From the NCBI GenBank assembly GCA_043228905.1, contig JBHGNT010000001.1:9610001-9674000 (forward strand): DNA of 64,000 nucleotides. The letters run 5' to 3'. Shown here one piece after another: positions 1 through 54,793 of this stretch (position 1 is its first letter; every line of letters starts with the position of its first letter). Under the pieces are notes generated by a model. It was not told where the DNA came from. It did not search any database and worked only from the letters and a program-made list of their open reading frames with translations. Position numbers and translations under genes: made by a program. The DNA is from Azolla caroliniana (taxonomy: Eukaryota > Plantae > Polypodiophyta).

Positions 1-14
1 GAAGAAGGACACCC

Positions 15-3000
15 ATGAAAGAAAGCAAGAAGACACCCACAAGAGAAAGGGTGATGAATTCATCAACACAGAGAAAGAAGATGTACCACTCCATCAGTCA
101 AGACACACCTCTTGGATGGAATTATTTCCTTCGAGCACGACCTGACGTTTATCCAGAGCTGAGAGAGTGGTTGTTAAAAACCAGGGGGTCAGCACATCCC
201 GACACAAGGCGAGGATTCCACATAAGTGGTTTGAAGAGGGAATACATGAATTTATTGAAGACGAGATACGAACATGTTTATGATACAAATCAAATCACTA
301 ACAATGAGGTGGGTACTATTTTTGCACGTGCTTTTGCATGTGAAGTTCAAGGTGGCATTGACGTAAATTGGGAAGATTTTAATCGGCACCGGTCAGAACA
401 TTACAAAGGGTCCTCCAGTACCAACACTGGCTTGAAGTCATCTGGAACCTCTCATGTGGATATTCTAGCTATAACACCTGTCCACCAAGTTCTAGAGGCA
501 AAGGTACGGGCCACAATGACTGAAAAGCATGAACAGATGATGGCCGGTTGCATAGCTTCTATGAGCTCAAGAATACAAACACTACTTGCTGATATGGAAG
601 CAATTAAATCAGCTGAGATACAGGCAGAAAAGAAATTTTCTTCAATAAAAACTACATATGAATGGATTGCATCGACAATCCAAAATTCAGAAAGTGAGGT
701 GTTGAAAGAGGAGTTGAAGAAAGAGCTAAACAATATGGGCACTCAATTAGGTTCACAGATGAGAGACCTTGATACTTGCAGGAATGCACATGAAGAAATA
801 GATAATAAGTTGTCAGCCTTAAAGTTGCATTCTGAGAACCTTGCATGCTTGATGCAGGATTTAAAACAAAATGGTTTTGATACTTTGTGTCCATCTGTAA
901 TTGAGCACCCAAGTGGTATAGAAAGTACCATTATTAGTATAGCTATATCACGGTATTGGCTTTAAAAGTTATTTATTTCTACTTCTCTGGTATAAATAAG
1001 TGAGCAGCTAATATATTATAACTTGTGTTTGCAATCTTCCAGGTGTATATTTTGTGGCCTCAGATTCAAGCTGGAGGCTATGGATGTTGTGATTACACCA
1101 TGCTTGCACACATATCATGTGCTATGTGCTAAGTATCATTTTGAGAAAGAGAATACATGTATGGACTGTAAAACTACAATTGCGGCTGAGTGGTACTATG
1201 CTTGGGGTTTAAAAGTACACCCGTACGATATGTGGCTCTACTATTCTATTGTTTGTATTATATGATGTCAATTAACATTTGGACTAGAACTAGTGTATGC
1301 CACAACTCATACTTCAAATTTAGCGTAATCTCTAACAACTATTATGTGGAACCCTAATTATGTGGGTTAGTATTGGTAGTACTCTTAATATATAATTGGT
1401 ATGTGTAGTTGAGGATATTTTCCATAACTAGTAGTACTAAAAGGGAACCAGGTACAACATCGTCCAATCTATATTGCAACTTGCCTAGTATTAGTTTAGT
1501 AAACACTATACTTATAGTACACTGTTGACTGTTAGTATTGTTTGTGTAACTTGGGAATTAGTACTAGTAATGTAATTTGGGAACAAGGTGTATAGTAAAT
1601 TGCTGAATAATAGTACAATTATTGTAATTTGGAAATGAGGTGTGTCAAACACACATCACGTTTAGTACTAATACTGTTCAAGATTAATACTGTTGGTGTA
1701 ATTAGTACAAGTTATGTAACTAGGTGTGTAGAAGACATATCATGTTTAGTATTACTTGTGTGCAAAATACCAATCTACATTTGTTGGATTAGTACTTAGT
1801 AAGTACTACATGGTTCATGATTAGTACTAGTTCTGTACTTTGTGAACTAAGTTACTAGTACATTGCTCATGATTAATACTAGTTTTGTAATTTGGGAACT
1901 GAGTAGTACTTTGTTCCTTATTAGTACTAGTTTTGTACCTTATTAGTACTAGATCAGTAATCTAGAAAATAAGTGAGGAGTACATTTTGTAGGATTAGTA
2001 CTAATTGTGTAATTTGACTAAGTCAGTGGTACATTGTTGAGTAGTACATTGTTCAGGATTAGTACTAATTGTGTAATTTGACTAAGTCAGTGGTACATTG
2101 TTCGGGATTAGTACTCCTTGTGTAATTTGCTAACTAAGTGAGTAGTATATTGTGCATGATTAGTACTACTTGTGTAAATTGGGAACTAAGTGAGCATTAC
2201 ATTGTTCGGGATTAGTACTCCTTGTGTAATTTGCTAACTAAGTGAGTAGTATATTGTGCATGATTAGTACTACTTGTCTAAATTGGGAACTAAGTGAGCA
2301 GTACATTGTTCGGGATTAGTACTCCTTGTGTAATTTGGTAACTAAGTGAGTAGTATATTGTGCATGATTAGTACTACTTGTGTATATTGTGCATGATTAG
2401 TACTAATCGTGTAAATTGGGAACTAAGTGAGCAGTACAGTGTTCCTTATTAGTACTAGTTCAGTAATTTAGGAACTATGTGAGTAGTACATTGTTCATGA
2501 TTGGTACATTGTGTAAAATGGGAAGCAGCTATTGTGACCTACATTATATATTTTAGATGATGGTACTAACATTCAAGGTTTTTTTGTTTCTTGCAATGAA
2601 TGTTGTAGTGTCAAGCAACTCCACGCCAGGGAAGGTAATGGAACAACCAGCCCCTGTGCCTAAACCCTCAATATCTGCTGCACATTCCAAGGTTCAGGGA
2701 CCATCATTACCAATAGCCTATGATTTTTATGATGAGGATGAATGTATGAGAAGGGCCATTGGAGCAGTGGAACATATGCTTCTACAAACAAATTCCCCAA
2801 GCTCCGGTCAACATCAAGAAATAGAGCCCACTAAGAAGAGAAATGCAGTTTCTTTACAAATAGAGCCCAGTAAGAAGAGAAATGCTGCAAGAATGTTGTA
2901 TGGAAACGGCAAGAAAGGCAAAGTTGAATGCAATGGTGAGTCATATAAGTTCTCACCTGTCTGGAGCATTGTCAACCTAATCCATTGTCTAATACCATGT

Positions 3001-4389
3001 ACTTGTGTTACTAGCTGATGATGAAATGATATTTGGTGACGGAGATACGAGTCCAAAACCTGATCATGAAGACGAATTTATCACACTCCCAGGTACACGT
3101 CAAAAGCCAGACTTTGAAAACAATGATTTAGCTCATAACAACCCTATTTTTGTTGTTATTATAGATCATAACAACACTGTTGAGCACCTAGATGTTGTGG
3201 AGAAGATGACCGAGCCCACCACTTGCAATGGGGTATCTACGGCTGTACAGTATGACGATGTAACATTAGGTAAAAATGTGGCCCTAAACCCTATGTTCAT
3301 TGTTTGCAAACTTTTGAGTATGTGAGTTCATACCAATATTCTTTGGAATCCCATTAATTAGGTTTACAAGAGCAGTCTGATTCCCAACTGCAATCAAATG
3401 AATCGGGAACTTCATGGAGCACAAGTGCAGAATTAGATTCCCATCAGAGTCAGAATCAAATTAACCTTTGCAAGGAGGCAGACTCTGGAAGCACATCTTC
3501 CACACATGAGGATTGTGAGAAAAACGAAGCATTCATATGTGAAGAGCAGTTGGCGTGTACAAACAACACTATGTCTAAAGAAGCCTATGAGTGTGGAAAG
3601 AATATGGCAAGTACTGAAGAGAAGATTGAAGCCCATGAAGAGTGTGGAAAGAATATGGCAAGTACTGAAGAGAAGACTGATTGTACTGATAATGTGGCAA
3701 GTGCTGAAGAGAAGACTGATTGTACTGATAATGTGCTAGTACTATCTAAAGATTCCCATGAGGATCATGGAAAGAACATTGCTAGTAATGAAGAGGAGCT
3801 TGATTGTACTGAGAATGTGCTAGTAGTGTCTTGTGAAGCCCATGAGGATCGTGGAAAGAACATCGCTTTCCCTGAAGATAAGCCTGATTGTACAGAATCC
3901 CATGAGGAGTGTAGAGCGAACAACGTTACTAATGAAGGTGGGCCTGATTGTACTCAGAGCGAACAACGTTGTCTTAAGAATGAGGTGACATCCACCATAC
4001 AAGAGGAGTTGACCATGACTACTGCCACGGTCCACATACAAGAGTCTAATAAGAACGAGTGTATAGGCATCGGTGATGATGATAGGGCAATAAAGATCGC
4101 TAGGAGTACAAGCATTCAGGAGATGAGTGATAATTTATCTATCGACGACACCTTTGTGGATTTGTGTACAAGCATTGCAGTTGCAGAAAACATAGTTGCT
4201 CTCTCAAGCTTACCACCAGTACAAGGTGCCCGCGCATCCACGCTTGTCTCTGATGCCTCTGATGATGAAGTGCCACTTAGTCAGCTCATACCTAAAGGCT
4301 TTAAGATAAAGAAGAATGTAAAATCAGAAAAATCTGGCACCAACAACAAGCGCATTACAAGATCGGCCAAGTTACCCTCTAGTGCCTGA
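15..4389 (+). CDS. Transposon-borne multi-exon protein (~920 aa or more): N-terminal domain, coiled-coil-like region, RING-H2 finger, long acidic low-complexity tail
   Basis: Phase-consistent GT-AG exons: 15-952, 1043-1214, 1409-1451 (tentative), 2609-2935, 3015-3269 and 3362-4389, totalling 2763 nt with no stops. The RING-H2 reads CIFC-x14-CLHTYHVLC-x10-CMDC. The N-terminus may start upstream of the window. Confidence 0.7.
1460..2510. repeat. TAGTAC-rich minisatellite in the RING-gene intron (~52-bp monomers, 104-bp dimers)
   Basis: TTCGGGATTAGTACTCC recurs at 2101, 2205 and 2309. GATTAGTACT recurs about every 52 bp, with degenerate copies upstream. Confidence 0.9.
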
Positions 4390-4689
4390 TTGTCTTTCAA
4401 TTGTACTTGAACTTTAGTTGTTAGTGATGTCTGAAATTGAACTATTTGGATACCAAAATACTGTTTCAATTGCCAATGTAAAAAATCCAGTTCATGAATC
4501 TGAAATAGTTATACCAGTGTGAAATCAAGTTCATGTTTAAGGATTGCTTCTATATTTTGCTCATCAACATATATCAAAAACAATGGGAATATACTTTTTG
4601 ATCTAAGTATTCTTATTTTACAACGTTTTGTTTCTTTTTTGAGATCATCTCCTAATCCTCGCAAAGTCTTTTCGTCTATTGTAGATAAA

Positions 4690-5351
4690 ATGCTTGAAAG
4701 TCTTCTTAGCTTGCTAGGAAAATTTAGGTTTTTAGGTGTTGATGATGAGAAACAGAAAATATCGGGTGTTATTGAAGATATACTGAAGTATAGACTGTTT
4801 CATCAATCCCATTTGGAGGGTAACCAGAATGTGTGCAAATTGTTGAAGCAATGTGGGCCATATTTTGATGATATCATCCCAAAGGATGAATCATCCACTA
4901 ACAGTAGTAAGGAAACACTTACCTTTTTGAGCTATCACAAATTATTGTTTCAGAAGTTGGATTATTTTGTTAAGGAAAGGAAGGTCTGTACTTTAAAATC
5001 CATAGCCTGGATATTCAGGACTTATATACAAGAAGTAAAAACTCAGATGGCTTCACAGGACATATCATGAAACAAAAAAGGATTCTGAGAGAATAATTTT
5101 CATTGTTGTCTTCACAGAATTCATCGCCCCCTTTGAAGAATGAACTTACAGTAGAAAATCTTACAATATTAAAGTCTTTAATGAAATCAACTAACAATCT
5201 TCTCTTGGTAGCAAAAGAAGAGCAGATTTATGTGCCAACAGAGGACACACCAACTCTGCAAAACTCCTATGCTCAAATAACATCAGGAAACATGAGCAAT
5301 ATCGGCAATGAAGAAATCCAAGTCCTGTTGACAACAGCTAATATATTATGA
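4690..5351 (+). other. Orphan ORF pair (4690-5070, 5103-5351) between the RING gene and the transposase; possible third transposon gene, disrupted
   Basis: Two adjacent ORFs with protein-like composition inside the element. I recognise no domain. Confidence 0.3.
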
Positions 5352-5496
5352 AAGATAAGTACAAGTGGTTGAGAGGCATAAACCCTTTGGAAGAAAGACG
5401 AAATATATCAATTCATTTGTCAATCATCAAAATTAATAGTGAACTCCAAGTGGATGTTTTTCAGTTTTCTGGTACAATGTATTGATAGGGTGACTT

Positions 5497-8400
5497 TCAA
5501 GCATTAAATAGAGAGACCTCCCCTAATATGTGCTCATGAACCTCTTGGGGGACCTTGTAGACAGTGTTGTATCCCTTAACCTTGTGCTTTGCTTGAGTCA
5601 TATTGAATTTGATCGCAAGAATGGCATCAGCGTAGATTATTGCGATGGGTGCTTCTTTTAGTAATGCATATGTGTTCTTGCACTGCGGCAACTTTGCATA
5701 ATAGTTTCCATACACGACAGACTCACCAACGTTGAAATTGTTGCCCCAACCATCCCTCACCACTTCTTTCAATATGGTCTTTCCTTGCTTGCACACCACA
5801 ATGTAGTAGTCTTCTAAATCTTCATTCTGAGAATATTTGAGCACTGCAAAATGATCTCCAACTTCCAATAAAACTGCCAAGTCTTGATTTTGGTTGTAGT
5901 ATACAATATCGTTTGAATGCACATCCTCTTCAATATCATCTTGTCGTTCAGGCTCAAGCTTCTGCAGCTTCCAGGGCTCCACGATTGATAGGTTGATGCA
6001 TTTATCCCAAGCTTCATCTAGACACATGGAACAAAAGCATGATAAACTATGGAGTAACAATTGGGTTGTGTCCTTGCGGCTAAACCCTAACACACAATGG
6101 GTGTTGCGTGTGCCTTTCACGGTTTTACAACCATATGATTTAGTTCTATCGACCTCATCAGCGCGAACTTCAACAAACAATCTGTTCTTACCATCATTTG
6201 ACATCTTCCATGTTAGCCACTGCACAACATCATGTGCATTTTGTAACTTAGCACCGTTATTATCCAACTGCTCACTTGTAAGGGCACGTTTGATCACAAC
6301 CCCCGCGCCATCATGCTCTCCTTTTCCATGTCCAGACCCGAAGTAATTCCATTGCATACAAATATTGAATAAGGAGAAATACCTGCTTTGGTATCTCAGG
6401 TTTCCAACAAAATTAGTACTATGTTGTCAATTGAGAGTACTACACTTCCATTAATACTGATTTAGTACAAATACAAAACAAAGCATAGCACAACGTATCC
6501 ATTGAGAACACTCTACACTTATTAAAAGATAAATAGTACTATGTTGTCGACCAACAGTACCTGGCATCCATTTAATACTAACTTAGTATGGATATAGCAC
6601 AAAGTATAGTACAATGAGTTCATGGAAAGCACTCTACATGTATTAACAGATAAATAGTACAAAATGTTCAATATCGGATAGTACAATACAATGTGTCCAC
6701 GGAGAACACAACCCTCCTTAGAAGATCATTAGTACTACAAGACATGTACTTTACATCCCCCAATAAACACTGATTTAGTATAGATACGCAGAACATTGAT
6801 TAATAGATAATCAGTACCACACAGTGTGTTTAAAAGATGAGTACAAGATTAGTACAATACTATGAGTACAACATGAGTAAATACTGATTTAGTACAATTC
6901 TCTTAAGGACGGACAATACTATGAGTACAAGATGAGTACTTTACATCCTTTTGTAAACACAACATAGTACAAAACCAACACACAACATAGTACAATGTGT
7001 CTATAGATAACCCTTCACATGGATTAATCGATACTTAGTACAATTCTCTTAAGGACGGACAATACTATGAGTACAAGATGAGTACTTTACATCCTTTTGT
7101 AAACACAACATAGTACAGAACCAACACACAACATAGTACAATGTGTCTATGGAGAACCCTTCACATGGATTAATCGATACTTAGTACAATTCTCTTAAGG
7201 ACGGACAATACTATGAGTACAAGATGAGTACTTTACATCCTCCTGTAAACACAACATAGTACAGATACAACACACAACATAGTACAATGTGTCTATGGAG
7301 AACCCTTCACATGGATTAAAACATAATTAGTACAATTCTCTTAAGGACGGACAATACTATAAGTACAAGATGAGTACTTTACATCCTTTTGTAAACACAA
7401 CATAGTACAAAACCAACACACAACATAGTACAATGTGTCTATGGAGAACCCTTCACATGGATTAATCGATACTTAGTACAATTCTCTTAAGGACAGACAA
7501 TACTATGAATACAAGATGAGTACTTTACATCCTTTTGTAAACACAACATAGTACAGAACCAACACACAACATAGTACAATGTATATATGGAGAACCCTTC
7601 ACATGGATTAAAACATAATTAGTACAATTCTCTTAAGGACGGACAATACTCTAAGTACAAGATGAGTACTTTACATCCTTCTATACACACAACATAGTAC
7701 AATGTGTCTATGGAGAACACTTCACATGGATAAAAAGATCATTAGTACAATTCTCTTAAGGACGGACAATACTATGAGTACAAGATGAGTACTTTACATC
7801 CTTCTGTAAACACAACATAGTACAATGTGTCTATGGAGAACACTTCACATGGATTAAAAGTTACTTAGTACAACATAATACAAACAAAATTAGTATGCAT
7901 GCATCCATTCACAAGTGCAAGATTCGAATAGTTACAAACATAATTAGTATGCATCCATGTGACTAGTACTGTTTGTTAATAGTTACAAACATAATTAGTA
8001 TGCATCCACTAACACAAGAATTACTTCCTTACACATTGCATGATAAGTACTAAACATATGGATTAAAAATTACCTGGCGATAAAGTAGAACGATCGTGCC
8101 GCCTTAAACTGCGAGGCAGCACCATCAGACCAAACCCAATGACGGTTAAAGGTTAACCCTAGAGAAAATAAATCTACATGGTGAAGCTTAAAACAATGTT
8201 GAACAAATAGTGTATCATGCTTTTTATCATCTGAAATGTAAAATATTGATTTCTTATGTAACTCACCGTCTTGCCTCCAATAGCAAATATGTACAAGTAT
8301 TGTACATTGATCATTGTACCAATGCATTGATTGAACCTCATTTTGAACTTGAAATGTATAGTTTTCTGCAAAATCAATAACAGATACAATGACACCCGTT

Positions 8401-9713
8401 GGTAAGTTATTAATACATTCCTTGAACTGTGAATTTTGCCAATAACTCCAGAAGTTATGTGGAATAAACTCCCGAAGTTGTTTCTTAAATTCTGAGACAA
8501 GGGTAGCAGCACATGTCTCCTTATATACTTCCTTGATACGCTTAGTTACAACTCCCTTGCCAATATTTTCAGTCACATACTCCAAATATTTCCATTTCAC
8601 GATATGACTATTTCCCATATCAAGCTCCTGCCTACAAAATAATGGTAGCGGACAAACCTTACATGTTCTTAATAGACATGTACGACGATGCCACTCACAT
8701 GATGGTTCTTTTTCACAAACACAAGACCTCCATAGCTCAGAAACGGATGCATAAGTCATGTTCCGTGCATTACACCTATTATCATCCCCATTTGGTCTAC
8801 AAATCTCACAAGTGCAAACACATAATTCCCCATGTATACCCTTAGAATCAGTACGCATTGCATTCACTGCTAGCCTTAACATGTCCATCTTCACATGGTA
8901 CACACAACAACATGTATTCCTCTCATTTAATTTTCTATGGTTTCAAACCTTGGAACTTGCGGAATCCGACAGTCAAGCTTGGATGTTGGTCTTTAAAGTT
9001 CATGTACAATTCAGCTTACATCAACCAATATATATAGCAAACATTAATATACACTTGGTCAAAACACAAAGTTATGGAATGTGAATTGATATAAAAAAAT
9101 GGAATACCTCTGTCATCTCCAAGAAGTGTCTAGGGTGAATCTGGTACTTACCCTGACTTATTCGTTGTCTACACACGTCCTTCTTATTTGGTGAGACACG
9201 CGTATTTTTGGCCCAAAATGAATCCACTTTCTCAATAATCTCTTGAGATAAGGCATCACATCGTCGTCTACGTCCCGATCCCAGCCACTTGAATTTGCTT
9301 GAGTGTATATTTCGGCGATGTTTCCTCAAGTTCCTTCTTTGAATACCTAGGGCTAAGGCAACTTTAGTATCACTATATTTTTCTTCTCTCGCACCGTTCA
9401 CAACCATGTGTAGGGCTACCCTCTTTGCAGCAAGTTTGTCTAAGCTCTCTACACCTTTCACTAAGTCTAGGGATGACTTCATAGACTCCACAATCTCTTC
9501 TGAAACACATTGGTCCCTAAATTTTATTCTCTCCATGTCTTCATTCAAACTTTGATGGTGTAACACTCTACAGATAATATCCCTACGATCCTCTTCACTA
9601 AATCTCTTCGTTATTTCTACCAAATAACGGACTATGTGAAGAACCACTCATCTCTTAGTCCTTTCAGATATGCATGAGTTACTTGACAACTCACTCTCGT
9701 TAGGAACCCCCAT
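5497..9713 (-). pseudogene. Sola2-like DDD transposase, three exons, disrupted
   Basis: Exons ~9713-9108, ~9015-8074 and 6382-5497; the GT-AG intron 8073-6383 is phase-consistent (FIAR|YFSLF). Putative catalytic Asp residues lie in DFAENY, WSDG and EHDG. There is an in-frame TGA at ~9650 and a stop/frameshift near 8935. Confidence 0.75.
6410..8050. repeat. TAGTAC-rich satellite in the transposase intron: five 146-bp units, two 123-bp units, degenerate flanks
   Basis: TTAGTACAATTCTCTTAAGGAC starts at 6889, 7035, 7181, 7327, 7473, 7619 and 7742. Confidence 0.95.
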
Positions 9714-9768
9714 TCGGTCACTAGATTTATCCACAAAAATTAAGTGTCTTGCGAAAGTAGTTAATGTT

Positions 9769-10350
9769 ATATAGACTCAACCAAGAAAACACAATCAAAT
9801 GTTTTTAAATGTGGCCTGCAAAGTGAGAAATATTTTGTTTCAAATATTAGAATTACATATCAAATATGACAAATGTCAATTCTAAAAATTTAGTACTGAA
9901 ATATGAAGAAATGAAACATTTTAGTACTGAAAATAAAAAAATGGATGGAAGGAACCTCCAATGGTGGAGGGAGCGTGGATATATAGACTCAACCAAGAAA
10001 ACACAATCAAATGTTTTTAAATGTGGCCTGCAAAGTGAGAAATATTTTGTTTCAAACATTAGAATTACATATCAAATATGGCAAATGTCAATTCTAAAAA
10101 TTTAGTACTAAAATATGAAGAAATGAAACATTTTAGTACTGAAAATAAAAAAATGGATGGAAGGAACCTCCAATGGTGGAGAGAGCGTTGGATATGCCGC
10201 CTCGATTTGGTGGAAGCAACCTCCAATGGTGGAGGGAGCGTGGATATGCAGCCTCGATTTGGTGGAAGGAACCTCCAATGGTGGAGGGAGCATTGGATAT
10301 GCCGCCTCGATTTGGTGGAAGGAACCTCCAATGCCGCCTCAATTTGGTGG
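9769..10350. repeat. Subterminal repeats: a 212-bp direct duplication and ~53-bp units containing the hairpin CCTCCA-ATGG-TGGAGG
   Basis: ATAGACTCAACCAAG occurs at 9771 and 9983. GGAAG(G/C)AACCTCCAATG occurs at ~9947, 10159, 10212, 10264 and 10317. Confidence 0.9.
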
Positions 10351-10875
10351 AAAAAGCCCCAAATCACCACGACATCAACTGCAATCGGTGGAAGTACGAA
10401 AGTCGTTGTCAAAGAAGTGACTATTGGCTGCTACCTAAACCCTCAAAACAGTCTCTGTACCTCAACCGAAACCTAACAAAAACAGAAACCCTAACAAAAT
10501 CAGAAATCCTCAACTCAAACTCTCCAACCAGACATGGATGTCTGAGATTTAGATTGAAGGAAAATCAGATACGTGACATGGATGTGTGTGATGAAAAGCT
10601 CAGAGGGATAGAGGAAGAACAGTATGAGGGGAAGCGCCAAAATCGACGTGAGGGGAAAATAGCCCCCAAAATGGAAGAACATCTCCTCACGTGTTCCCCC
10701 CACTCCTTCTAGAGTAAATGACACTTGTACTACAGTCACCCCACTCTCCAAAATCGATTTTCTTTTTCTCTAATTTTTTTTCTGAATTATTCAGTACTAA
10801 CAGTATTGAAAGTACTGACAATTTTTGTGGCCAAAAACAATACTTTTTTTGGTACACCGTAGCGTGCTTCGACCC

Positions 10876-13800
10876 TGTCACACAAAGTCAAATTTCAAGA
10901 GTTATCAACCATGGACGTATGTACGAGCCCATCTTGTTGAAGAAGAGATGGATGATGAAAAAGTCATAGGAGATGGATATCAAAATGTCGACAAGTATGA
11001 CAACATCCTTCAAGCAGTCATTGCCGAATCACTTTCCGCAACGATTCCAAACCCAAGTAAAGTAAATGATCTATGGTATCTCGACACTGGTGCTACAAAC
11101 CACTTAACTAATAGAAAAGATCGGTTATGTAACTATAAGGATGTTGAACCTCCCATCATTGTAAGATTTGGAAATAATGGGACTAAACAAGCTATTGGCA
11201 AGGGTGATATTACTTCTGAAGTCATAAGAGGAGGACATTTCACAATCAATGAAGTTCTCTATGTCCCAGGCATCACCAAACATTTGCTATCGGTTAGTCA
11301 AGCAACGGAAAATGGTACTATCATTGAATTTCATCCTAAACATGTTATTATTAAACATAATGCCTCAAATGGAGAACTTATTAGAACATGTTGTAAACAA
11401 GAAGGAGGCTTATATCCCATAAAATGTATTCCTACATCTCTTATTTTAGAAGCACATCATACTACCCCAATACAATCCTCCATATCTTTAACCAATCTTC
11501 ATTCTCCTTCTTCTGTTTGTCACTTTCGTCTAGGTCATATGCATTTCAATGCTCTAAAAACAATACAATGTAATAATCTAGTCCATGGATTGCCAAAAGA
11601 ACCTTTCAAGCCCATCTCTTTGTGTGAAAGTTGTATCCTTGGGAAAATGCCCCAACAACCATTCCCAAAGCATAGACCTAGAGCCACTACCCCTCTTGCA
11701 TTAGTACATAGTGATCTATGTGGACCTTTTCCAACCCCTTCTCCTAGTGGAGCCAAATATTTCATTAGCTTTATAGATGACTTTAGTCAATTTACAATCT
11801 TGCATTTTCTCAAGTACAAAAGTCAAGCTTATCAAGCATTCAAAGAATACAAGGCTCGAGTCAAAGTGCAAACATCATCAAAGATTAAAAGTCTTCAAAT
11901 CAATGGTGCTGGTCAGTATATGCCTCATGAATTTCAAAGTTTATATCAAATTGAAGGTATACATGATAGAATATCAACGCCACACACACCACAACAAAAT
12001 GGTGTATCTGAAAGAAAGAATAGATCACTCCTCAATATGGCTCGAAGTATGTTACAATTTGCTCACTTATCGCCTCAATTTTGGGAGGAAGCGGTTGGCA
12101 CCGCTTGCTATATTCAAAATCGAGGATTTCATACATCTTTGGGGCTCCAAACCCCTTATGAACTATGGCATGGTCACAAACCTAACTTAAGTAACCTTCG
12201 TATTTTTGGTTGTGATGCTTATGCTTTTGTGCCAAATGTTCAAAGAAATAAGCTAGATCCAAGGGCTACAAAATCAATTTTCATCGGATATGGAGAAGCT
12301 TCCAGATACAAGGCGTACAAGCTCTACGATCCACAAAAACGAAGAATATTCTTTAGTCGTAATGTGATATTCCAAGAAAATGGGCTTTCTACAAAGGTTT
12401 CTTCTTCACTCTCTTCTAATCTACCTCCCTTATTACCTACCCCTACCCACTTACAACTATCTTCCTCAACCATTTCTAATATTAATAGCTCTCATATTGA
12501 AGGAGCCAACATTAGCTCATCCTCTACTTCCACTATTTGTGTTGCTCTTCCATCTATTCACAAGGCAAAGATCAATCCTACTCAACCAACTAATTCTTCT
12601 TCTCATCTTCCCTCATTCCAATCTCTAGATGATTCTCTTCCTCATACTGCTTTAAATACACATTGTTTGACTCCCTCAAATAATACAAATAATGTTATCT
12701 TCTCCACTCCCTCTCGTAATCCTTCATTCCAAGAGTCATCACCAACTTCTCCAACTCCAAAGTATAGATATCTAAGTAGTATTTATGAACAACTTGATCA
12801 GATTGAAGCACATTTCGTGGACTTGGACCATGAAGCTTATATACAAGAAGAATATATTCCAACCCTTAGTGATGACACAAATCTATCGGCCAAAGATACA
12901 CTTTCCGGATCGGATTCTATCAAATGGAGAAAGGCTATGGAAGAAGAAATGAAGGCTTTACTTAAAAATGGTGCGTGGACCCTCGTTGAGCCTCCAAAAG
13001 ATCGACAAATAATTGGTTCTAAATTGGTCTTACGCATAAAGCGAGATAGTAATGGCAATCCAATTTGCTTCAAGGCTCGTGTAGTTGCTTGAGGATTTTC
13101 AAGATACATTTAGTCCAACGCTAAAAATATGTGGTTTTCGAATGCTCGTTGCTCTTGCCGCGTAGCATGATCTAGAATTCCATCACTTGGATGTACAAAC
13201 GGCTTTTCTTCATGGAGATTTAGATGAAGAACTTTATCTACAATAACCACAATTTTATGAAGATCCAAGTCATCCGACACATGTTTATCGGCTTCGTAAA
13301 TCTATGTACGGCCTTAAGCAATCTCCACGCATATGGTATCACAAACTACACTCTTATCTTATAAAAGTTGGATATCATCGTCTAAACAATGAGCCAAATA
13401 TCTATGTTAGAAAAGCCAACTCCAATTTTGTTATCATAGGTGTCTATGTCGATGATTTGCCCTTGATCTCTAACTCTAAATCTTATCTAACTATTGCAAA
13501 GAAGGAACTTGCATGTCTTTCCTATCACTAATTTAGGCCCTATGACCCATTTTCTAGGCATCAAAATAACGCAAAATAGAACAAATCATACTATCTCATT
13601 ATCACAATCAAATTATATTAATTCTATCCTCCAAAGATTTGATATGCTCCATAGTAAGCCTATTAGTACACCTCTTACCTCTCCATGTAAACTTTCAAAT
13701 GATGATTCTCCCAAAAATGAACGAGAAATTTCCAAAATGAAGGATGTACCCTATAAACAAATCCTTGGGTGTATAAGATATCTAGTAAGTTGCACACCTC

Positions 13801-14010
13801 TTTTGCTTTGCCGCCGGTTTTCTTTCTCGTTTCATGGTTAATCCAGGACCAAAGCATTGGATCGCGCTCAAAAGATTACTACGATACGTGAAGCGTACTC
13901 AACATTATGCGTTGACTTACTCCGCCACAGAATCTGAGTCAACCACACTTGTGCAAGGATGGAAAAATCCCTCTAGCCAACTAATTGGTTGGTCAGACTC
14001 GGATTGGGAG
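10876..14010 (+). mobile_element. Ty1/Copia pol remnant (protease, GAG-pre-integrase, integrase, RT; RNase H largely deleted)
   Basis: Motifs WYLDTGATNH, HFRLGH..CESC, HSDLCGP, TPQQNGVSERKNR, KARVVA, YGLKQSPR, YVDD and WSDSDW. Stops and frameshifts follow 13092. Confidence 0.95.
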
Positions 14011-14611
14011 TATATTTGAGCTTGCATACAGATTTGGTTGCTGGATCGCTAATATCGGATTCGAACGCTCTGTCGTTGTAATTGTATACTCTGTGCGTTA
14101 TTTGGACAAATCTTATTTCGCAAATGTTGTTTCTTTTATAATTTTGCTGCATAGCACTGCAGCCCATTTCTGTAGTCTTTACATGGTTCCAGCACAAACA
14201 AACAAAAAGAAAAAGAAAAAAAGAAACTGACACAAATTAATGGCTCACGACACAGGCTTAAACTGTACACAGCACGTGAATTTTCTTAATTAGTAATGAT
14301 GGTATGTATAAAATACAGTGGAAAAACCATTGTTCCGATATTCTTAATGATCTCTGGGAAGGGGTAAATCAAGGCTATTATTATTGAAATCACGACGGGT
14401 GGGTATATGTGCGATATGGACAGTGCAACTTATTGATCCTGACCATATACATACATACATACATACATGTATGTATTATGTACTACTACTACTCAATCCA
14501 CCATTATTCTTCATTCATAACAGCCAACGAAATGCCGGCTCAACAGTATATAGTGCAAGAAACACAGACAGTATTCATAATAATGGTGATGATGGAAAGG
14601 ACTAAATCTGA

Positions 14612-17600
14612 CTACAGGCTGAAGCTCACAGAGTGGAAGTGCAGGAGGGCCCCCCTGTGGCCTTCCGAAGATTTGGATGTGTCAGGGGCGGCATAGAAGG
14701 GGCGGAAAGGCGAGCATCTCTTGCATTCTCTGGCAATGTCCTCTTGCATGCTCTCCGATGCCGACACCAGAACTCCCACACATTCCCCACGGTGTTGCTC
14801 CACCAAGCCCTCGAAGACATCTGCCAATATTTTGGACCATCAAATTTAGAAGAACTACACATTCATTGCTTGACATGCTTCATTCTCAGGGGTAATTCAT
14901 TCATGCATCAATTCAGTGCCATATATAATCGCAAGTCCACTACAGTATAGCATACATAGCACATTCCTGAGTAGATGGTTTGAAATAGCTATGGCATGAT
15001 ATTTGAATTAACTAGTACTTTATTCAGCCAGAGGATGAGATCATTGAGCTAGAAAATTCTGCACAAATAGTACTATATATTCGTATATAGTGACTGCAGC
15101 TTGAATAGAAGGGATTAAAATTTCAGAATTGGGGTAATCTACCTGTACTCATATATTCACAAACTTGTATATGTACTACTACTACTCTTCCCAGGTTAAA
15201 GAAGATACCACATATATTCACAAATGCTTATGTTATGAAAACATACTTAACTTTCTTGGCGTAACGAATGCTTATGTTTTTTCTTTAACGTTTTTAACCT
15301 TTAAAACTTTTTTGCCGTAATAAAAAGTTTAGGGTTTAGGGTTTAGGGTTAGATGTGGACCCTATGATGCCAACCTACCTTTCCAGTTTGGCCGTGACAA
15401 AATGTGGACATCCCCATCCCACTGAGATGCGCCATCTTCGATTCCGTTGTAAGTTGCTCCCAAATCTTCGTTACTTCCGGATGGAGAAGAAGTCGGACTC
15501 TGTTTCCTCGGCTGCACCGATGCCGAGCTTATACTCGATTGTCGTCGCAACATATGGAACCATAGCAGAACCACGAGGCCGCCACAAATGAGAATCCCCA
15601 AGATCATGCACGCCACCACGACATGCGCGCGATTGTAATTGGTGAAGGTGTGATGGGCATAGGACCTCACAATAAAAGTGTTTGCCAAGCCTGAAAGCAC
15701 AAAGTATCCTGCAAAGGATGCAATGGTGGTTAATGCTACCCATGAGGTGCTCCCTGTGCTGCCAATGCTCGAGATTCTTCCATCGGATTGTGGGTGTTGT
15801 GCCGCCGGATAAGAGGAATCAAATATCAATGGTTGTGATGTAGGGTGTTCACGGTTAAACTTGGATAGGTCCAAGGATTGGCCTATTCTATATGAATTAT
15901 GAGCCGTGTTGCCACCGGGTAGTGGCACTCCCTCATAATCTTGTATGTTCTTCGAGGTTATGTATACATGTACTCGGATGCGCAGTCCTAATGTCTCATA
16001 GCCAGGGAGAATTTGGTTAGGATATAGGGTATTTAGCACACATAACTCCTCTGGCTTTCTTATGCAGTGGTAGAGTGTGATGGAGGTCGGAAGAGTAGTC
16101 GATGCCGGTGAGGATCTAACGTCTTTGTATCGATACAAGATATCGCGGATTATAGCGAGGGCAGGGGTGAGGCCTATGCCCCCGGCCACGATGACTAGGG
16201 TTTTATACCTGCGAAATATTAATCATATACATTACATTAAGTAATGGAAGCAACTCATTAATGTGAAGGCTAGTTATATCAATGAGGAACGACAGACATG
16301 AGCTTTGGGAACGGAATCGAGAACAGGAATTACGACAAATAATTAGAGAGATCCCCATACTTTAGGTAGAAATCGGACTCATCGCCGTAAGGACCTTCGA
16401 CTCTAGCCTTAAACGAGAAAGGGCAGGAACCCCCAGTTTTCTTGGCACTTGAGAATTGATCGCGCAAACTATTCGTCCATTCGCCGAGAGGCTTGATTAC
16501 GATGGAGAGCTCCTGCGTGTTATCGAGAGGGGACGATGCGCCACTGAAGAAGTGCCACTGTAGTTTGGAGATACCAGGAATCTGGATGCACCATGTGGAG
16601 AGTGCATTATAGAGTGGGGTCCCTGACATAAGTAATGATCACATTATTGCCTGTTATTAGTAAAGGTTAGAAGAGCTCACTGACTGAATTTAGTCAGAGA
16701 GATTCTGGAATATTAATTAATATGTGGATCCGAACAAGCACACATACATGAAAGAGAATCCATTTATGTTACCTTTGGTGGCATTGGTGTTAAGAGGCAG
16801 CAAGAGCTCGACTGTGCCATTCTGGAGGAGCTTGGCCGAGGATACGCGGACAACACTGGACGATTGGATCATGCGAAGGAAGCGATCGATGAAGAAGAGC
16901 ATGAGAGGGACGATGAAGAAATGATAATTCCAGACCGCGTGATACAGCCAAAAGAGGGAGAAGAGGAGATACAGGTGGTGGACCGAGAAGAATATGTCGT
17001 AGAAGCGGCGACGCACGAAGGAGAGGGAAGTGGCCCACATGACTAGACCGAACACCCATGCCACCAGCCCGGCCACTACCGCACAGTTTTCTTGCTTCGT
17101 GACCCACCCAAAGATCTAACAACAAGAAGCGAAAAACAAATTATGTCCCTATCAAGATATGATCAAACACACTCAAGTACAATGAATGCATCATGATGGA
17201 GAAACCACATGAGCCCTAGCATAGGTTGGCCCTTGGGACATCATCGGCGTTAAGCCTTGTAACATTATGGTAATATTGGGCGAGACAGTGAGCGCGAAAT
17301 ACTGCATGATTTGAACCTACCAAGTGCGTACGGTTGGTGTTGGCATAGAGAATGATGTAGCCGAGGCTATGGAGGCTGACGAGAACAAGCATGGAGACGG
17401 CGAGCCAGATGTGGTAGCGCACGGCGCGCTCGAATGGGATGCCTACGAGCCGAAGAAACGGCGAGCCACGCGACACGGGGATCCAGAGCAACGAGAATGG
17501 CACGACGGCCACGCGTCCGAAGTAGAAGGATACGTTATTCAATTTCTGCCATGGCCTGCAATATCAATGGAAAACATGAGTGCTTATTATGTACACTCTT

Positions 17601-17693
17601 GTCACATCTTGTCGAGCTCACGAAAGCCTCCTCGTATATGTGATTGGGAATTTAACAAACAATGTGAGCTTGGCGATGGTGTTCAAAGCATGA

Positions 17694-17730
<37 letters not shown>

Positions 17731-18495
17731 TGTTGGAGAGAGAGAGAGAGAGAGAGATATGGTTATGTCATGATCGTAGTAGGACGTACTTGGCGGGGGG
17801 CGGGCCGGAGCCGTGGTGGTGCTGGGTGTTGTTGTCGATGCGGGTGAAAGCAATGTTGACGATTCTGCTGAAGTGGTAGATCATCAACAAAGTTATGGCC
17901 AGAATTCCGAGAAGCTCCGAGGCCGTGAGGATGCCGAAGGGGCTCTTGTCCACCCACACCGGGTACGTACTCATCTGCCATTGGTTTTTCCAGCCGTTTG
18001 CACCCGCGGGCACCACAACACGGAGCTGTGCAGTCTTTGCTTTGATGAATGCGCGGAGCCGGATCACGACGAAGCTCAGAATGGTGACGACGAAGAAAGG
18101 CATGGTTTGGTATATGAATGTCGAACCTAATGGATGGATGCCATAGATATATATATCAGTTTTAAGTAGGAGGGAGCTGATCACTTGACAAACCATATAT
18201 ATGCATACACATATATATGCATTATGTGATCACTAATTATATTATATTACTGGTAGGAGGTGTACTGTAACGATTCATCTGGGTGAGATTGATAATGAGG
18301 GGCTTAGTTACCTTCGCGACCGTCGGTCCGAAAGAAGCGAGAGTGGGATTTGTTGCCGATCCACGACTCCACGTATTTCTTGTCTCCTTCTGGATCGGGC
18401 GCGACGAACCACCATAATACCCAAAACACGCACGCGGCCACGATTACCGCTTCCGTGACCGCTTTTGCCACCTTCGCCCGCCGAATTGCCCCCAT
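14612..18495 (-). CDS. FRO: Ferric reduction oxidase (ferric/cupric-chelate reductase), copy 1, 7 exons, ~799 aa
   Basis: Exons 18495-18312, 18126-17790, 17555-17321, 17115-16773, 16622-16361, 16208-15379 and 14820-14612 total 2400 nt; all junctions are GT-AG and in phase. Heme His pairs YHIWL..SLHS and VHHLY..LYHA are present, as are VEGPYG, VAGGIGLTP and C-terminal HFHSVSFSL. An alternative in-frame ATG lies at 18621. Confidence 0.93.
15328..15348 (+). repeat. (TTTAGGG)3 plant telomere-type repeat in the last FRO intron (also 48079-48099)
   Basis: Direct reading: tttagggtttagggtttaggg. Confidence 0.9.
17695..17758. repeat. Compound (GT)n/(GA)n microsatellite in FRO intron 2 (same length in copy 2)
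   Basis: Direct reading. Confidence 0.95.
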
Positions 18496-18836
18496 CAATC
18501 TCTCATCATCCTCATCTAGGCCATGGACGACCGCCGCAGCCTCCCTACCTGCATCAATCCTTGCGTTAATGCCTCGGAATATCAAACTCGGTAGCCACAA
18601 GGCAAGGAGGCCAAAATTCATCCATAGGAGGCACAAACAACAACAACTACTGCTACTTCTCCAACATACTCATCGCGGATTAATCGAGAAGTTAACTGCC
18701 GAAAGATGTGCGAAACTCAATCGCTTCTATGTACGGCAATGTTGTTGATCATTAGGGAGAAGAATGAGGAGGGTAATGATGCTCGACCAGACAAGCCTTA
18801 AACCACACAGATCCTGTTAAGGACAAAGTGGAGTGT

Positions 18837-18932
18837 TATATATATATATACTTGCATGATATGGTTGGGTTGACTCTAGAGAACAGCTACCCACTAGGTA
18901 GTAGTACAACACTGGTACCGCATGGGTTGTAC
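18837..18932 (-). promoter_or_regulatory. Putative FRO core promoter: (TA)n TATA tract plus three GTAC motifs (SBP/SPL core, copper-response-element-like)
   Basis: TATATA tract at 18837-18850. GTAC at 18904, 18915 and 18929, plus CCGTAC on the minus strand near 18732. The same motifs occur in copy 2 (+32751). Confidence 0.45.
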
Positions 18933-18989
18933 TAATGTGTTAAGTCAACTGGTATTTGCGAAGGACCTCTCATGTCCCCATAAAGACAA

Positions 18990-21190: not shown

Positions 21191-22691
21191 TTGAGAGGGT
21201 GCAACATTTCTATGCATATAACCACCATAACTTAAATTCAGATGTTCTTGGTTGTATCAGATCTATAATTCAAATATCCACTCGATTTAGTCTTTCTCTT
21301 CTATAATTTTACATATGGTAGAAAGAATGAGCACATCCTTACTTCAACTTTGTGTGGTTTTTAACAGGGTATTGATGTGCAAATTTTCAAGTAGGACCAC
21401 CATCTCCACCCTGCAACCGTTGAAAAGACTGTTGGTTCAATGTGCATCACACGTTAGACGATTCGTCCGTCATGGTCTAGATGGTGTTCATCCCTAATTT
21501 TGAATTTTCCATCGTCACACGGAGTGGTCCTCATCTCTTGAGCATCTCAAGAATTCCAAGAGCTATGAGAATTCCCTTGTGAGGAGTTGGCTCCCCTCAT
21601 TTCAACATTCCATTAATTTGGTCTTCAAGATTTGCCCGAGGTTGCACAACCATTCCCCTTGTTGTTCCTCATCAACAATAGTTTGTTATTCAATGCACAA
21701 TCCTTTCCGTTGTACACACAATTGAGGCGTTTGGACGTTCTTCACTGTAATAGAGATTATGGGTATATATATTCTCATGGAGAGGTATAAAGAATAATAA
21801 TACATTGTGTGGTGTAACCATCTTTAAGAAAGGTTATCTTGTTAAGTGTTTACTCATTATTACAATTACCATTAAAGTAGCTTCAAATTATTTATACATA
21901 TACATACATATGCACAAATATTATTTTAATTTTCTCACCGTTATTTTCAATGCAGCAATTTTTTCAGTAATTCGACACTATCACGTGCTGACATCATCAC
22001 ATGATGGTTCAATGTTCATGTTGCTAGAAACTATATGATGCATGATTTAATTAGAGATATTATAAATTTAGAATGAGATGCAAAAAATCAAAGGAACTAT
22101 AGGAATCTATTTGTACACCAATGGTTAGTGATGCTAGAAAGTAACTAAAGTTATTCTTTAACATCAATCTATATGAAATGCATGCACCAACTACATGTAG
22201 CCTTGTAGGCCCAACTGCTTCAAACACCACTTATCGTAGAAGCTTCAATTTAATAATGAAAACTTCAAACTCTACACCCAACAAAAGCTAGTTAGCATGT
22301 ATGTTATAAAAGCAAAATCTACTTTTTAATTAAAAGCTCATTCCATTGTTTACAATAATGTTATTAACATCTATCTTAATACTTAAATGTTCTTATGCCA
22401 CTTCAACATCTTAATGGTTTTAGATTATTAAACACCCCTAATAATCTTTTCTATTTGTGTTAGCAATGGACACATTGAATAATACTCGCAAAAACAACAA
22501 TTATAGCCCCAAATGCTAGTATGTCTATCTAGGGCTTCGTATTACATTCATGTTGGTGCATCATATTGATTGCATAAGGATCACATATGGCTCCACATCA
22601 TAATAACTAAGGCTATTTGAGATAATGGGACTTGGTGGCGTGTGTATGGCTTTGTGTATAGACATGTTTTTGAGCCTACCACTATCTTGAT

Positions 22692-23021: not shown

Positions 23022-23359
23022 GGGTGAAAGCACACTACAGTGTACCAACTTTTGGCCAAAACTGTAGAACTAATTCCATGTGGAGGAAAAACTTTAAAAT
23101 GTAAAAGTAAATCCAATATTTGGGTTTAAAAAGTTGACCACTTGTTTTGAAATTAAAAGTCACATTCAATGAAAATAGATTTCAAATATGAATAAACATC
23201 AATTGTGTTAAAATTCAAGGTAATGTTGTAAGGAGGTCTTAACTATATAAGATCTTGAGTCGTTAGTCAATCATGAAGATAATCAGCCTATCTTTCTCTC
23301 ACTCTGTCTCTCATGGAAAATAATAGGTTTATCTCGAACTGTCAGTTAGTTAGTTAGTT

Positions 23360-23400
<41 letters not shown>

Positions 23401-24771
23401 ACACTTGGTAATTCCTTAGGTTCGTACCTCCTCTCTCTCGCACTCTTTCCTTCCCCCTTCTACTCATTTATTCACTACATTTGTACCCGCTCCCTCCTTC
23501 CCTCCCTCCCTCCCTCCCTCTCTCTCTCTCTCTCTTCCAACTTGTGCATAGGTTTCTCCACGTTCTCTGCTCACCCTGCAAACCGTAAACCCACTCCCTG
23601 CTTGTCGTGTCCTCTTTGCAACAACAATACACTCAGGTGTTGTACCGTGTCCTCACTGCATGGACATCAGATCTTCAACTGTGTCCTCGTCGTGTCCTCT
23701 CTCTGAGGTATTCTCTCTCTCAACCGTTGTACTGTGTCCTCGTTACATCAAGCTTTCCTCTACTAGTCACGTTCTCTCTCTCAAGCGTTTTCTGAAGTGT
23801 GTGGTATGCACACCTTATCCTCTTCACATCGGTCTCTGCTCTGCTGGTCGTGTTACCTCTACCTCCAAGTGCTCCCTCTACCCGGTGTGTTTCAAATGTG
23901 TCCCCTCTTCAAAGACTTCAACAATGACATTTGGTACTTGTTTTACTATATTTTTGTATGTTTAATTCTATCTGTTTTTGTCATTTTCTATCTGTTTCTT
24001 TACATCTGCAACCATAACGATGTTTGGGACATGTTTATCTATATGTTTGATTCTATCTATTTTTGTCATTTTCTATCTGTTTTTTTACATCTGCAACCAT
24101 AACGATGTTTGGGACATGTTTATCTGTATGTTTGATTCTATCTGTTATTATCGTTTAGGTTTTTGTTGTTGTTGTTCTCCCTTGACCATTTGAGAGCTTT
24201 GTACATGCATATGCTTGAATTTGAGAGTCGGTCAACATGTGTATATGTTAAGTATCGGGAGTTAACATTATGTTTCATATCCGATATCTCCTTGAATTGT
24301 ATATTATTTAATATTGTTTACTATTGTTGTGCATGATTTACTATTATTTACTATTGTTGTGCATGTGAGGCGAAGAAGAGAGATAGGATTCACATGACAA
24401 GGAAGCCCACAAAGAAGAAAATGGTGACCGAAAATGTCATCACACCATGCAAGGAAAGAAAAAGGACCCCCATCAAAGAAAGTAAGATGACCCCCACCAG
24501 AGGGAGGTCTAAGTTTTTAGCAACTCAGGGCCAAAAGGTTCACACAAACATTGGGGTTATTTCCTTTGTGCACGACCTGACATTTATGAAGACCTAGACA
24601 TGTGGATGATGAAAACCTGGGGCTCATCACAACCCGAGACACGGAGAGGTTTCCACCTCACTCGATTGAAGAAGGATTATATCACTGAACTAAAGTCACA
24701 ATATGAACAAGTTTATGATACGAAACATATCCTAAACAATGGGGTAGGATTTGTATTTGCACGTGCATTTG
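23022..24771 (+). mobile_element. Left end of a second, diverged Sola2-like element with a 5' remnant of the accessory gene, truncated by a Copia LTR
   Basis: Terminus GGGTGAAAGCACACTACAGTGTACCAA. Region 24394-24771 encodes TPIKESKMTPTR and TRRGFHLTRLKKDY...YEQVYDT...VGFVFARAF, homologous to ORF 15-965. Confidence 0.8.
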
Positions 24772-26908
24772 TGTTGAGCGGCAAGCTCAACTAGATCCAG
24801 ATCGTCTGAATAAGCCTGAGCCAGATCGGCATCCCGAAGGATGAGCCGGATCGGCGAGCGGGTGAGTTGGGGAGTCAGTTAGCCGGATCAAGCAGTAACC
24901 AGAAGCCTAGTAGCAGCCTAGACTACTAGGTAGTTAATGTCTCGTAGTTAGAGTCAGACACTCGTGTGAGCATTGAAGTACATTGTACCTCTGTCAGTCC
25001 TCTTAGGACTTGTATAAATAGTGATGTTGAGCACATTGTATGTACAGAGAATTTTTACAGAGTTGTTGATAATAGATTTAAGTTGTTCTGCTCTTTCTCT
25101 GTCTCTCCTGCGTACCTTTTGTGTGTTCATCTCTCTCTCTCTCTCTCTGTTGCTATCCGGCTAAGCCAATTGTGTAACGCTTATGCAATTTCTATTTTTC
25201 ATGTTATCAGAGCGCGAGGGTTGAGAACCTTTGCAGCCGACATCAGCATCTGAAGACAAACCCTAAGACCCGGTTAGAACAGAAAGAGAAGTGATGGACA
25301 ATGGAAAGACTAGCTCGCTCCTGGTGGAGAAGCTCGACAGATCCAACTACGCATCTTGGTCATACAAGATGCACCAGTACCTGCTTGGCCATGGTTACTG
25401 GAGCTATGTCGACGGAGCTAACGACACAACACCTGATGTGGGACACAAGGACTTCCCAATGTGGGAACAAGTGGCAAGCAGAGTGATGTATTGCTTTGCG
25501 TCTAGTGTCAGAGACCAACTGCTGAGCCATGTCCGAGATGCCAAGACGCGAAAAGAAGCTTGAGGAAACCTGAAGAAGGTTTTCGCGGCGAGCACTACGT
25601 ATCGGAAGTTGCAACTCCGACATGAGTTGAGCAATGTCCGACAGAAGGACATGTCGGTAGCCGATTACACAGTCGGAATCAAAGAGATCTATGACTCACT
25701 TGCCTCTATGAACGTCACTGTAGAGGAAGATGAGATGGTGCAGATTTGTCTTGGGGGCCTAGCATCTAAGTTCAAAGCGTTCCGAACGGTGGTATGTACA
25801 AGGAGGAATACGCCGTCATTTTTCGACTTACAGTCGATGCTCCTTGTAGAGGAGAACCACGCCGGTGCGTCAACAAGTGCACCCACCGACAGCCGAATGT
25901 TGTACATGGAGGCGGATCAGCCCGGTGGGCGTGGTGGACGAGGCGGGTCGGCAAGAACAGGACTGAAGGCATAGAGAACATGCTGACAATAGTTCCGGAC
26001 CCTCCACAAGCAAGCGGAGTCAAGGCGGCGTCAGAGGCTGGCAAGCAAAGGCCGACACGGAATGCTGGTACTCTGGTAAAAAGGGCCACAGAGAAAGCGA
26101 GTGCTGGAAGAAGCGCATTGATTTGGACAAATCCGGATCCGGCATGGCCGGTAGAGAGATCCGACAATACTCACACTATGTAGAAGGATTGGGAGGATCC
26201 AAAACCGGAAAAGCCAGTAAAGGGCCAGGCTTGGTGATGAAACACGAGGCTAACTCGATGAAGAAGACCATTTCCAAATCGGAGTTGAAACCGAAACCGA
26301 TAGATCGAACCCGACCTGGAAGGGGGCCGACTCGGTTGAAACCGATCAACCGAGTTCGATTTGGCCGAATACGAATCTGATTGGAAGCCAATCCAACCGA
26401 AAGACAATCGGACAAGACCGATCAGGAAAGAAGTCGAGATTGATGAAGACGAGGAAAAGGCCAAGCATGCACACTACCATAGACAACAAGGGCCAAGTGG
26501 ATTTGAAGGGTGTTACCGAGGATGAGATCTCAACAAAGAAGGAGGGCTCTAACATGAAGATTGTCAACTCTAATGTGAGATTATACAACGAAGATGGACG
26601 AAGTGCAGAGTGTATTGACCAAGGAGACGGTCAGAACAAAGGTGGCCATGCACGAGACAAGAAAGGTTAAGCTAAAGAAGAGCACAAGGAGTCATGACAA
26701 CCGGTCATGGCCATGCAAAGAGTGAACGAAGAATATGGTGGATCGAATGGAGACAATGGTTCGGGTGGAAAGAATGGATGTGTTCAAAATGGAGAGACAA
26801 AGTCGACATAGCAAGAGAAATAGAGGGTACTACAAGTAAAGGAGAATTACGAGCACCGGCAATTTCGGCACATACCGGAGGATATGCGGGTTCGGAGGGG
26901 GCAAGTGT
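24772..26908 (+). mobile_element. Copia LTR (24772-25201), PBS and disrupted gag; pol absent (deletion derivative)
   Basis: TGTTG...TTCA LTR and tRNA-iMet-type PBS TGTTATCAGAGC at 25202. Gag reads KLDRSNYASW..LLGHGYW with a knuckle remnant CWYSGKKGHRESEC. A PPT-like GGAGGGGGCAAG is followed by TGT at 26906. Confidence 0.85.
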
Positions 26909-50444: not shown

Positions 50445-50481
<37 letters not shown>

Positions 50482-54662: not shown

Positions 54663-54793
54663 TATACAAATATTTCCCAAATTTTGATACATATACATAC
54701 ATATATACCCAAAATTTGATTATTACTCCTACTAAAAAACAAATAATAATAAATAAATACATAAAAAAAAGGAAAAAAGAAAAGAGAGGGAAA

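Follow-up and report, generated by a model that had tools for sequence, protein, structure and literature searches.

A Sola2-like transposon of Azolla pairs a RING-H2 gene with intronic TAGTAC arrays: a candidate anti-silencing system

Introduction

In flowering plants, Mutator and Spm transposons have been shown to encode anti-silencing proteins with sequence specificity. VANC21, from a Mutator-type element, binds a short motif whose copies lie densely and in one orientation in intronic and terminal DNA; the motifs of related VANCs are different ones (PMC5735166). The locus described here raises the question whether a transposon of another superfamily, in a fern, has arrived at a comparable arrangement. 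It lies in a 64,000-nucleotide stretch of Azolla caroliniana DNA (GCA_043228905.1, contig JBHGNT010000001.1, positions 9,610,001 to 9,674,000 of the forward strand), hereafter the window, whose positions 1-10,875 are the right-hand part of a DNA transposon. A preliminary description of the letters had reported a broken Sola2-like transposase gene converging on an intact RING-H2 gene, each with a TAGTAC-rich tandem array in its long intron, and had proposed an analogue of the VANDAL anti-silencing system. Our answer is tentative: somewhat short of an even chance, the protein of the RING-H2 gene, termed the accessory protein below, docks on its own family's arrays and uses its RING to keep the family transcribed against silencing, in a VANC-like loop.

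Results

A two-gene element and its relatives

The minus-strand transposase gene and the plus-strand accessory gene were confirmed to converge inside one element (Table 1). The terminus at 10851-10875 (-) has a second copy at 23022-23046 (+), where 0 are expected by chance; 21 of the first 25 letters are identical between this right end and the left end of a second element. Since the second element carries a broken start of the same plus-strand accessory gene before a long terminal repeat (LTR) element interrupts it, the family layout reads left end, accessory gene, converging transposase, right end. The left end of the first element lies outside the window, and the 4-bp target duplication of Sola elements was judged from a relative, L073, with terminal and target-site definitions taken from PMC3627910 and PMC10741241. 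L073 is an 8.0-kb whole decayed element in which transposase, N-domain (the N-terminal domain of the accessory protein), RING and array all lie between two short inverted terminal repeats; no target-site duplication was found in it or in the 29 loci searched. The first ~12 letters of the terminus are conserved even where transposases are only 35-46% identical (L016 at 659, L018 at 39, L042 at 1538/5492, L073 at 1458/9501).

No Pfam model matches the transposase, and its motifs agree by eye with the published Sola2 alignment (PMC3627910, Additional file 10), the shared ones being NxCxCxxH, DF[AS]ENY, QDE[IV]QSxHW, ISDDxxHD, SDGAASQ[FY]K and W.[FY]F..[SG]HGK. From these motifs and the termini the element is filed as Sola2-like. 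The transposase of this copy, called broken in the preliminary description, has three lesions: a premature stop (9648-9650), an altered splice acceptor of intron 1 (near 9016) and the loss of 8 bp near 8937. In relatives the stop is absent from all four loci compared, the acceptor is normal in three of three and the eight bases are present in six of six. Against those lesion-free loci the ratio of non-synonymous to synonymous substitution rates (dN/dS) is 0.12-0.31. Judged by its letters, the element is a dead member of a repeated family of plant DNA transposons whose transposase has motifs of the Sola2 type. Among 61 related proteins, the named ones belong to Klebsormidium, Ceratodon, Calypogeia and Cryptomeria, and matches in animals were weaker; no transposase relative was found in viral contigs. 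One Klebsormidium relative (P0031) is annotated as N-terminal leucine-rich repeats fused to a transposase, which may be a gene-model fusion.

The accessory gene travels with the transposase both within the family and among distant relatives. In four DNA runs from three related organisms, depth relative to a neighbouring ferric-reductase gene was 23-163x over the accessory exons and 39-210x over the transposase exons (accessory/transposase ratio 0.59-0.78); as depth on a contig is not a copy number, these values are read only as both genes being repeated together. For distant relatives, the best 80 of 331 confirmed loci of a metagenome scan were taken, 17 of which had ≥5 kb downstream and represent 15 distinct elements. 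The RING profile used for the first round combined the window sequence with L050 and three database proteins, and first-round matches were added for a second round. Matches at E<1e-4 were obtained in the first round for L039/40, L051, L055, L062, L078 and the shorter L017, and the second round added L073 and L042; the N-domain was matched in L031 (E 0.002) and weakly in L073 (E 0.09). A RING or N-domain open reading frame (ORF) lies downstream of the transposase in eight of the 15 distant elements with ≥5 kb flank, and also in L017 and L050. All of these face the transposase except in L073 and L050, where they share its strand, and no RING was found in 211 kb upstream of the transposase versus 10 loci in 238 kb downstream. 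In a quick-method tree built without Repbase references, the accessory-bearing elements are scattered through a transposase clade of which the Ceratodon protein is also a member. L050 belongs to a separate clade: at 3658-4917, behind its transposase, it has a 420-residue coiled-coil/RING-H2 ORF that lacks both an N-domain match and an array and may be an independent version or a rearranged one.

Relatives of the element are transcribed. Three poly(A) RNA runs from a related species, of ~12 million reads each, placed 126, 67 and 157 reads, with plus-strand RNA over 1-5475, minus-strand RNA over 5476-9855 and zero depth in bins 1461-2555 and 6571-8030. Most of these reads derive from diverged relatives, and their exon-1 differences match subfamily P0062 by eye. 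Seven reads join the splice of transposase intron 1 (~92 bp here); no accessory splice junction is among those listed.

The accessory gene

Judged from the homolog P0097, the accessory gene starts ~23 codons before base 1 of the window, and an intron at 953-1042 joins exon 1 to the RING exon. The six-exon gene of the preliminary description stood as an open chain, with the RING exon now starting at 1043; the splice sites of the array intron are not fixed, because 20 donor/acceptor pairs all keep the chain open. In small samples the gene shows purifying selection, with a dN/dS of 0.49 (103 codons) relative to the second, broken copy in the window and of 0.21 (59 codons) relative to RNA reads, the latter a rough value from the 40 best-supported differences only. 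As far as these samples reach, neutral evolution, which had been named as a possible refutation, is not indicated. A third gene considered at 4504-5351 was rejected; its ORF 4504-5070 appears non-coding, with one of 13 differences synonymous and a structure model at pLDDT 46.5.

Exon-1 homologs fall into subfamilies at ~95%, 61% and 60% identity, in clusters of 31, 37 and 12 members, and 32 of the 42 listed cover ≥290 of the 316 residues. The order N-domain, coiled coil, RING is intact in a single 405-residue ORF of P0094 at 25% identity. In far homologs the N-domain is the best-kept part (56% vs 28-31%, two proteins). Homologs with names come only from Adiantum nelumboides (two of the 10 clusters looked up), and a search with exon 1 among longer proteins gave no match.

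All eight zinc ligands of the RING (C3H2C3) are present in the window copy. The domain scores under the Pfam cut-off (zf-RING_2, E 1.8e-4) and weakly matches RNF4, synoviolin and Arkadia (best E 0.0015). The N-domain folds at pLDDT 82 from an eight-row alignment. The fold search that had been proposed for it was carried out and gave no significant match: there was none in Pfam, none at E≤0.001 by Foldseek against PDB and viral structures, and a best Z of 3.4 in VIA, which is not proof of a new fold. The Atlas gave no usable match for the N-domain and, for P0094, only generic RING clusters, under 0.9.

At the other end of the protein, the last exon closes, at 4260-4389, with a basic tail that is preceded by an acidic DDxPL-like patch, similar to L015 at 7110-7601 (-) and to P0083; the combination is a possible short interaction motif plus nuclear signal. 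Exon 6 also contains coding tandem repeats of 39 bp and 84 bp (3652-3893), and repeated peptides have been described in variable regions of VANC proteins too (PMC5735166).

TAGTAC arrays and what might bind them

The different tandem arrays reported for the two long introns were recovered by the repeat finder TRF, a 52/104-bp array at 2038-2389 within its wider repeat zone and a 146/123-bp array. On both strands together, the accessory long intron holds 40 TAGTAC in 1386 bp (28.9/kb; shuffle mean 4.9, maximum 11) and transposase intron 2 holds 34 in 1691 bp (20.1/kb; shuffle mean 3.1, maximum 8). The word reaches 6.0/kb in subterminal DNA and 0-2/kb in the five exons counted, and numbers 46 in the remaining 53 kb (0.87/kb). 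Its density in the rest of the window is 20-30 times below that in these introns, which gives no sign that the word is as common in ordinary introns, as might have been objected. The positions of the subterminal copies were corrected: TAGTAC stands at 9891, 9922, 10103 and 10134 (+) and at 10105, 10727 and 10794 (-), while 10811, one of the sites first listed, has only AGTACT. Non-palindromic copies of the motif number 38 on the plus strand vs four on the minus strand, across two oppositely transcribed genes, and this one-way orientation argues for a role at the level of DNA.

The two introns otherwise share little, as had been claimed: no common match exceeds 27 bp, and the best, of 17 bp, has E 0.024. 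The motif also outlasts its surroundings. In a sister subfamily with 85% identical coding DNA, the transposase intron does not align to that of the window element at E<0.01, and both are rich in AGTACTA. Many relatives likewise have tandem arrays in their transposase introns, and in five of nine RING-bearing relatives an array begins ≤~0.6 kb past the RING ORF. The top words of other families differ: AGTACCA, AGTCCAT, TAGCATA, AGGTGAA and TCAGGAA. The array-bearing intron 2 (6383-8073) is absent from the distant L010, L015, L017 and L031, where the region is one ORF of 600+ residues and arrays fill intron 1 instead; the array site has apparently moved to a newer intron.

A tandem array of any kind raises the count of the words it contains, and the arrays might be neutral minisatellites that expanded through slippage at a short near-palindrome, with the accessory gene as useful cargo unconnected to them. 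A single seed unit could explain the shared word, given matches of 17 bp and 44 bp that link arrays, and sharing of the word across the element is weak in 13 of 15 elements. However, both introns are rich in TAGTAC outside their tandem portions too (19-24/kb, above the shuffle maxima), as is subterminal DNA; the word persists where alignment of the intron is lost, and in many families arrays are found at matching places in the genes. We consider this explanation unlikely.

Alternatively, the arrays could be clustered host SBP-box (SPL) sites that let a host programme, such as the response to copper shortage, switch the element on, with the RING gene acting independently. SPL proteins bind a GTAC core, and GTACTRC and AGTACA/TGTACT are reported as SPL7 motifs (PMC9516184). 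The introns hold 87 GTAC, 77 of them A/T-flanked, together with 44 AGTACA/TGTACT and 13 GTACTRC, and GTAC is enriched ~1.6- to 4-fold in 12 of 24 array regions of relatives. The other 12 regions, however, lack GTAC enrichment and have unrelated words; a fixed host factor does not predict such family-specific turnover, which counts against this explanation. The constant TA before GTAC also exceeds the SPL core, and we regard a host SPL factor as improbable.

The binder could also be the transposase itself, for self-activation or for pairing of the ends, while the RING protein would do something else, such as tuning transposase turnover or host DNA-repair factors. Mutator transposase alone activates cognate copies according to a preprint (10.64898/2026.08.24.746577). 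In L016 and L018 the terminal repeat itself contains the array word (shuffle p ~0.017 each, uncorrected), and in the window family copies of the word are grouped a short way inward of the transposase-side end. Yet no such match between terminus and array word was found in the window family or in four other pairs, distant elements have similar termini but different array words, and arrays adjoin the RING exon in five of nine relatives. A transposase as binder seems fairly unlikely to us.

Features and neighbouring sequence

Table 1. Coordinates of the features of the element and of a related copy in the window
Feature	Position	Strand	Support
Accessory exon 1 (start cut by window edge): basic tail, ~105-aa N-domain (~90-410), predicted coiled coil	1..952	+	ORF, homologs, model pLDDT 82, stranded RNA of relatives
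RING-H2 exon (C3H2C3), 3' end uncertain (1189-1254)	1043..1214	+	
Accessory long intron, TAGTAC-dense, tandem arrays 1797-2515 (52/104 bp), ends approximate	1215..2608	+	Zero RNA depth in bins 1461-2555, three runs
Predicted exons 3-6 (~2609-2935, 3015-3092, 3165-3269, 3362-4389): acidic low-complexity tail, basic end	2609..4389	+	GT-AG sites and open frame, no RNA junctions
Transcribed 3' region between the stops of both genes	4390..5496	+	Plus-strand RNA
Transposase exon 3 (third catalytic Asp, HGKGEHDG motif)	5497..6382	-	
Transposase intron 2, TAGTAC-dense, 146/123-bp array 6889-7873	6383..8073	-	
Transposase exon 2 (DFAENY, SDGAASQFK); this copy has an altered acceptor and lacks 8 bp near 8937	8074..9015	-	
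Transposase exon 1, predicted start; premature stop 9648-9650 in this copy	9108..9713	-	
Subterminal DNA: 212-bp x2 and 53-bp x3.3 repeats, 7 TAGTAC	9714..10850	.	
Terminal inverted repeat, transposase-side end	10851..10875	-	Same end in L003-L005
Second related element, left end: terminal repeat and broken accessory-gene start (~24394-24775)	23022..24775	+	Cut by LTR element

A decayed Copia pol starts exactly at the transposon end (10876-14008), which suggests that the element inserted into a Copia copy. Farther on (36980-37101), 120 bp that are 97% identical to part of the subterminal repeats of the element directly abut a Copia fragment like that at 13051-14008, in a block of rearranged repeats. 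A gene resembling ferric reductase oxidase (FRO) lies in a 7.9-kb segment present in two copies, 14008-21922 and 46759-54674, that are 99.7% identical and represent either a recent duplication or a doubling in the assembly. The FRO-like gene is ~4 kb from the GTAC-rich element; this is probably a coincidence, though Arabidopsis FRO4/5 are SPL7-dependent (PMC9516184). At 35693-36600 and 41707-42307, 307-bp tandem repeats adjoin AG microsatellites within duplicated blocks resembling long interspersed elements.

Discussion

The findings are most consistent with the tentative reading that the accessory protein acts on its own family's arrays. The density of the motif, its one-way orientation and its retention through intron turnover fit the pattern of VANDAL elements. 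The N-domain, perhaps dimerised by the coiled coil, would read the clustered TAGTAC words; the RING might then recruit a ubiquitin-conjugating enzyme (E2) or a chromatin partner and so change chromatin or remove a silencing factor, upon which methylation of the element would fall. Copies such as the one in the window, with a dead transposase and an open accessory gene, would act in trans. A viral precedent for a RING ligase that counters silencing is the herpesvirus protein ICP0.

Several observations weigh against this reading. In typical E3 RINGs a helix Trp, the Pro of CPxC and a following Arg contact the E2; the window RING has His, Met and Lys at these places, which are variable within the family, and with several usual contact residues missing the domain may be a scaffold rather than a ligase. 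The N-domain is charge-neutral (15 K+R vs 14 D+E), and comparison with Pfam, PDB and viral folds signalled no known DNA-binding fold. No accessory ORF was found in seven of the 15 long loci (L037, L044/45, L046, L065, L067, L079, L080), and the samples behind the accessory dN/dS values are not only small but biased. With element regions set by hand, the top word of the transposase intron is strongly enriched elsewhere in the element in only two of 15 elements (overall p 0.04), namely the window element (44 vs 3.6 expected) and L011 (10 vs 0.5), and TAGTAC is missing from the left subterminal 1.37 kb of the second element. There is overlap between the motif and SPL7 sites, and in two of seven tested pairs the array word occurs in the element's own terminal repeat, favouring the transposase as binder. 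The candidate steps of binding, ubiquitination and methylation are all inferred.

A wider claim, which we hold to be doubtful, is that land-plant Sola2 elements have possessed their own sequence-specific anti-silencing ubiquitin ligase since before the split of ferns and mosses, in which a DNA-reading domain without any solved relative would tether the RING to arrays co-evolving with it family by family, and that they reached the VANC strategy independently by way of ubiquitin. If true, it would provide a second conserved case, in another superfamily and in seed-free plants, point to a general strategy and add ubiquitin to its chemistry, and an uncharacterised domain would gain a candidate six-letter target. 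Pairs of family word and protein (TAGTAC, AGTACC, AGTCCA, AGGTGA, TAGCAT) make the claim of co-evolution testable. Even if anti-silencing fails, the conserved RING gene marks a set of RING 'hypothetical proteins' of ferns and mosses as likely transposon cargo.

With regard to known systems, the element shares its transposase motifs and short terminal repeats with Sola2 (PMC3627910). A passenger is known there in the form of Fanzor1 in amoebae (PMC3627910), whereas the passenger described here consists of N-domain, coiled coil and RING-H2, is conserved across a plant clade and comes with intronic motif arrays. In line with the preliminary description, which knew of no accessory E3 in Sola2, the literature searched yielded no account of a Sola element with a RING gene as its accessory, Repbase reports and subscription papers lying beyond that search. 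The Ectocarpus element Sola1-1_Ec32 is likewise a Sola element with an opposite-strand accessory gene proposed to act on its own DNA, but it combines Sola1 with a ParB-methyltransferase in place of Sola2 with a RING (PMC12477816). Spm/CACTA elements are alike in encoding a second protein, TnpA, that acts on clustered family-specific motifs (10.64898/2026.08.24.746577). TnpA is reported to be transposase-derived and to bind termini, whereas the window motif is mostly intronic and the accessory protein has no likeness to the transposase.

The closest parallel is VANDAL/VANC, including KAONASHI/KIU (PMC5735166, PMC10398659, PMC13317346), which has in common with the window element an accessory gene, tandem repeats that multiply a short motif within introns and terminal DNA, high-density clusters in the same orientation, and words that differ between families. 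The conserved domains of VANC are named DUF1985 and DUF287; no such Pfam match was obtained in the window exons or the scanned homologs. VANDAL is moreover a Mutator-type element without terminal inverted repeats, in contrast to the Sola2 motifs and terminal repeats found here. Some VANCs (KIU-type) carry a Ulp1 domain, of a ubiquitin-like pathway (PMC13317346), the place of which is taken by a RING in the window element. The analogy first drawn with VANDAL holds for anatomy, density, orientation and motif turnover and does not extend to the VANC domains or the superfamily. Judged by its anatomy, the element appears to work like VANDAL/VANC without being a member of that system, as its transposase and its accessory domains are different ones.

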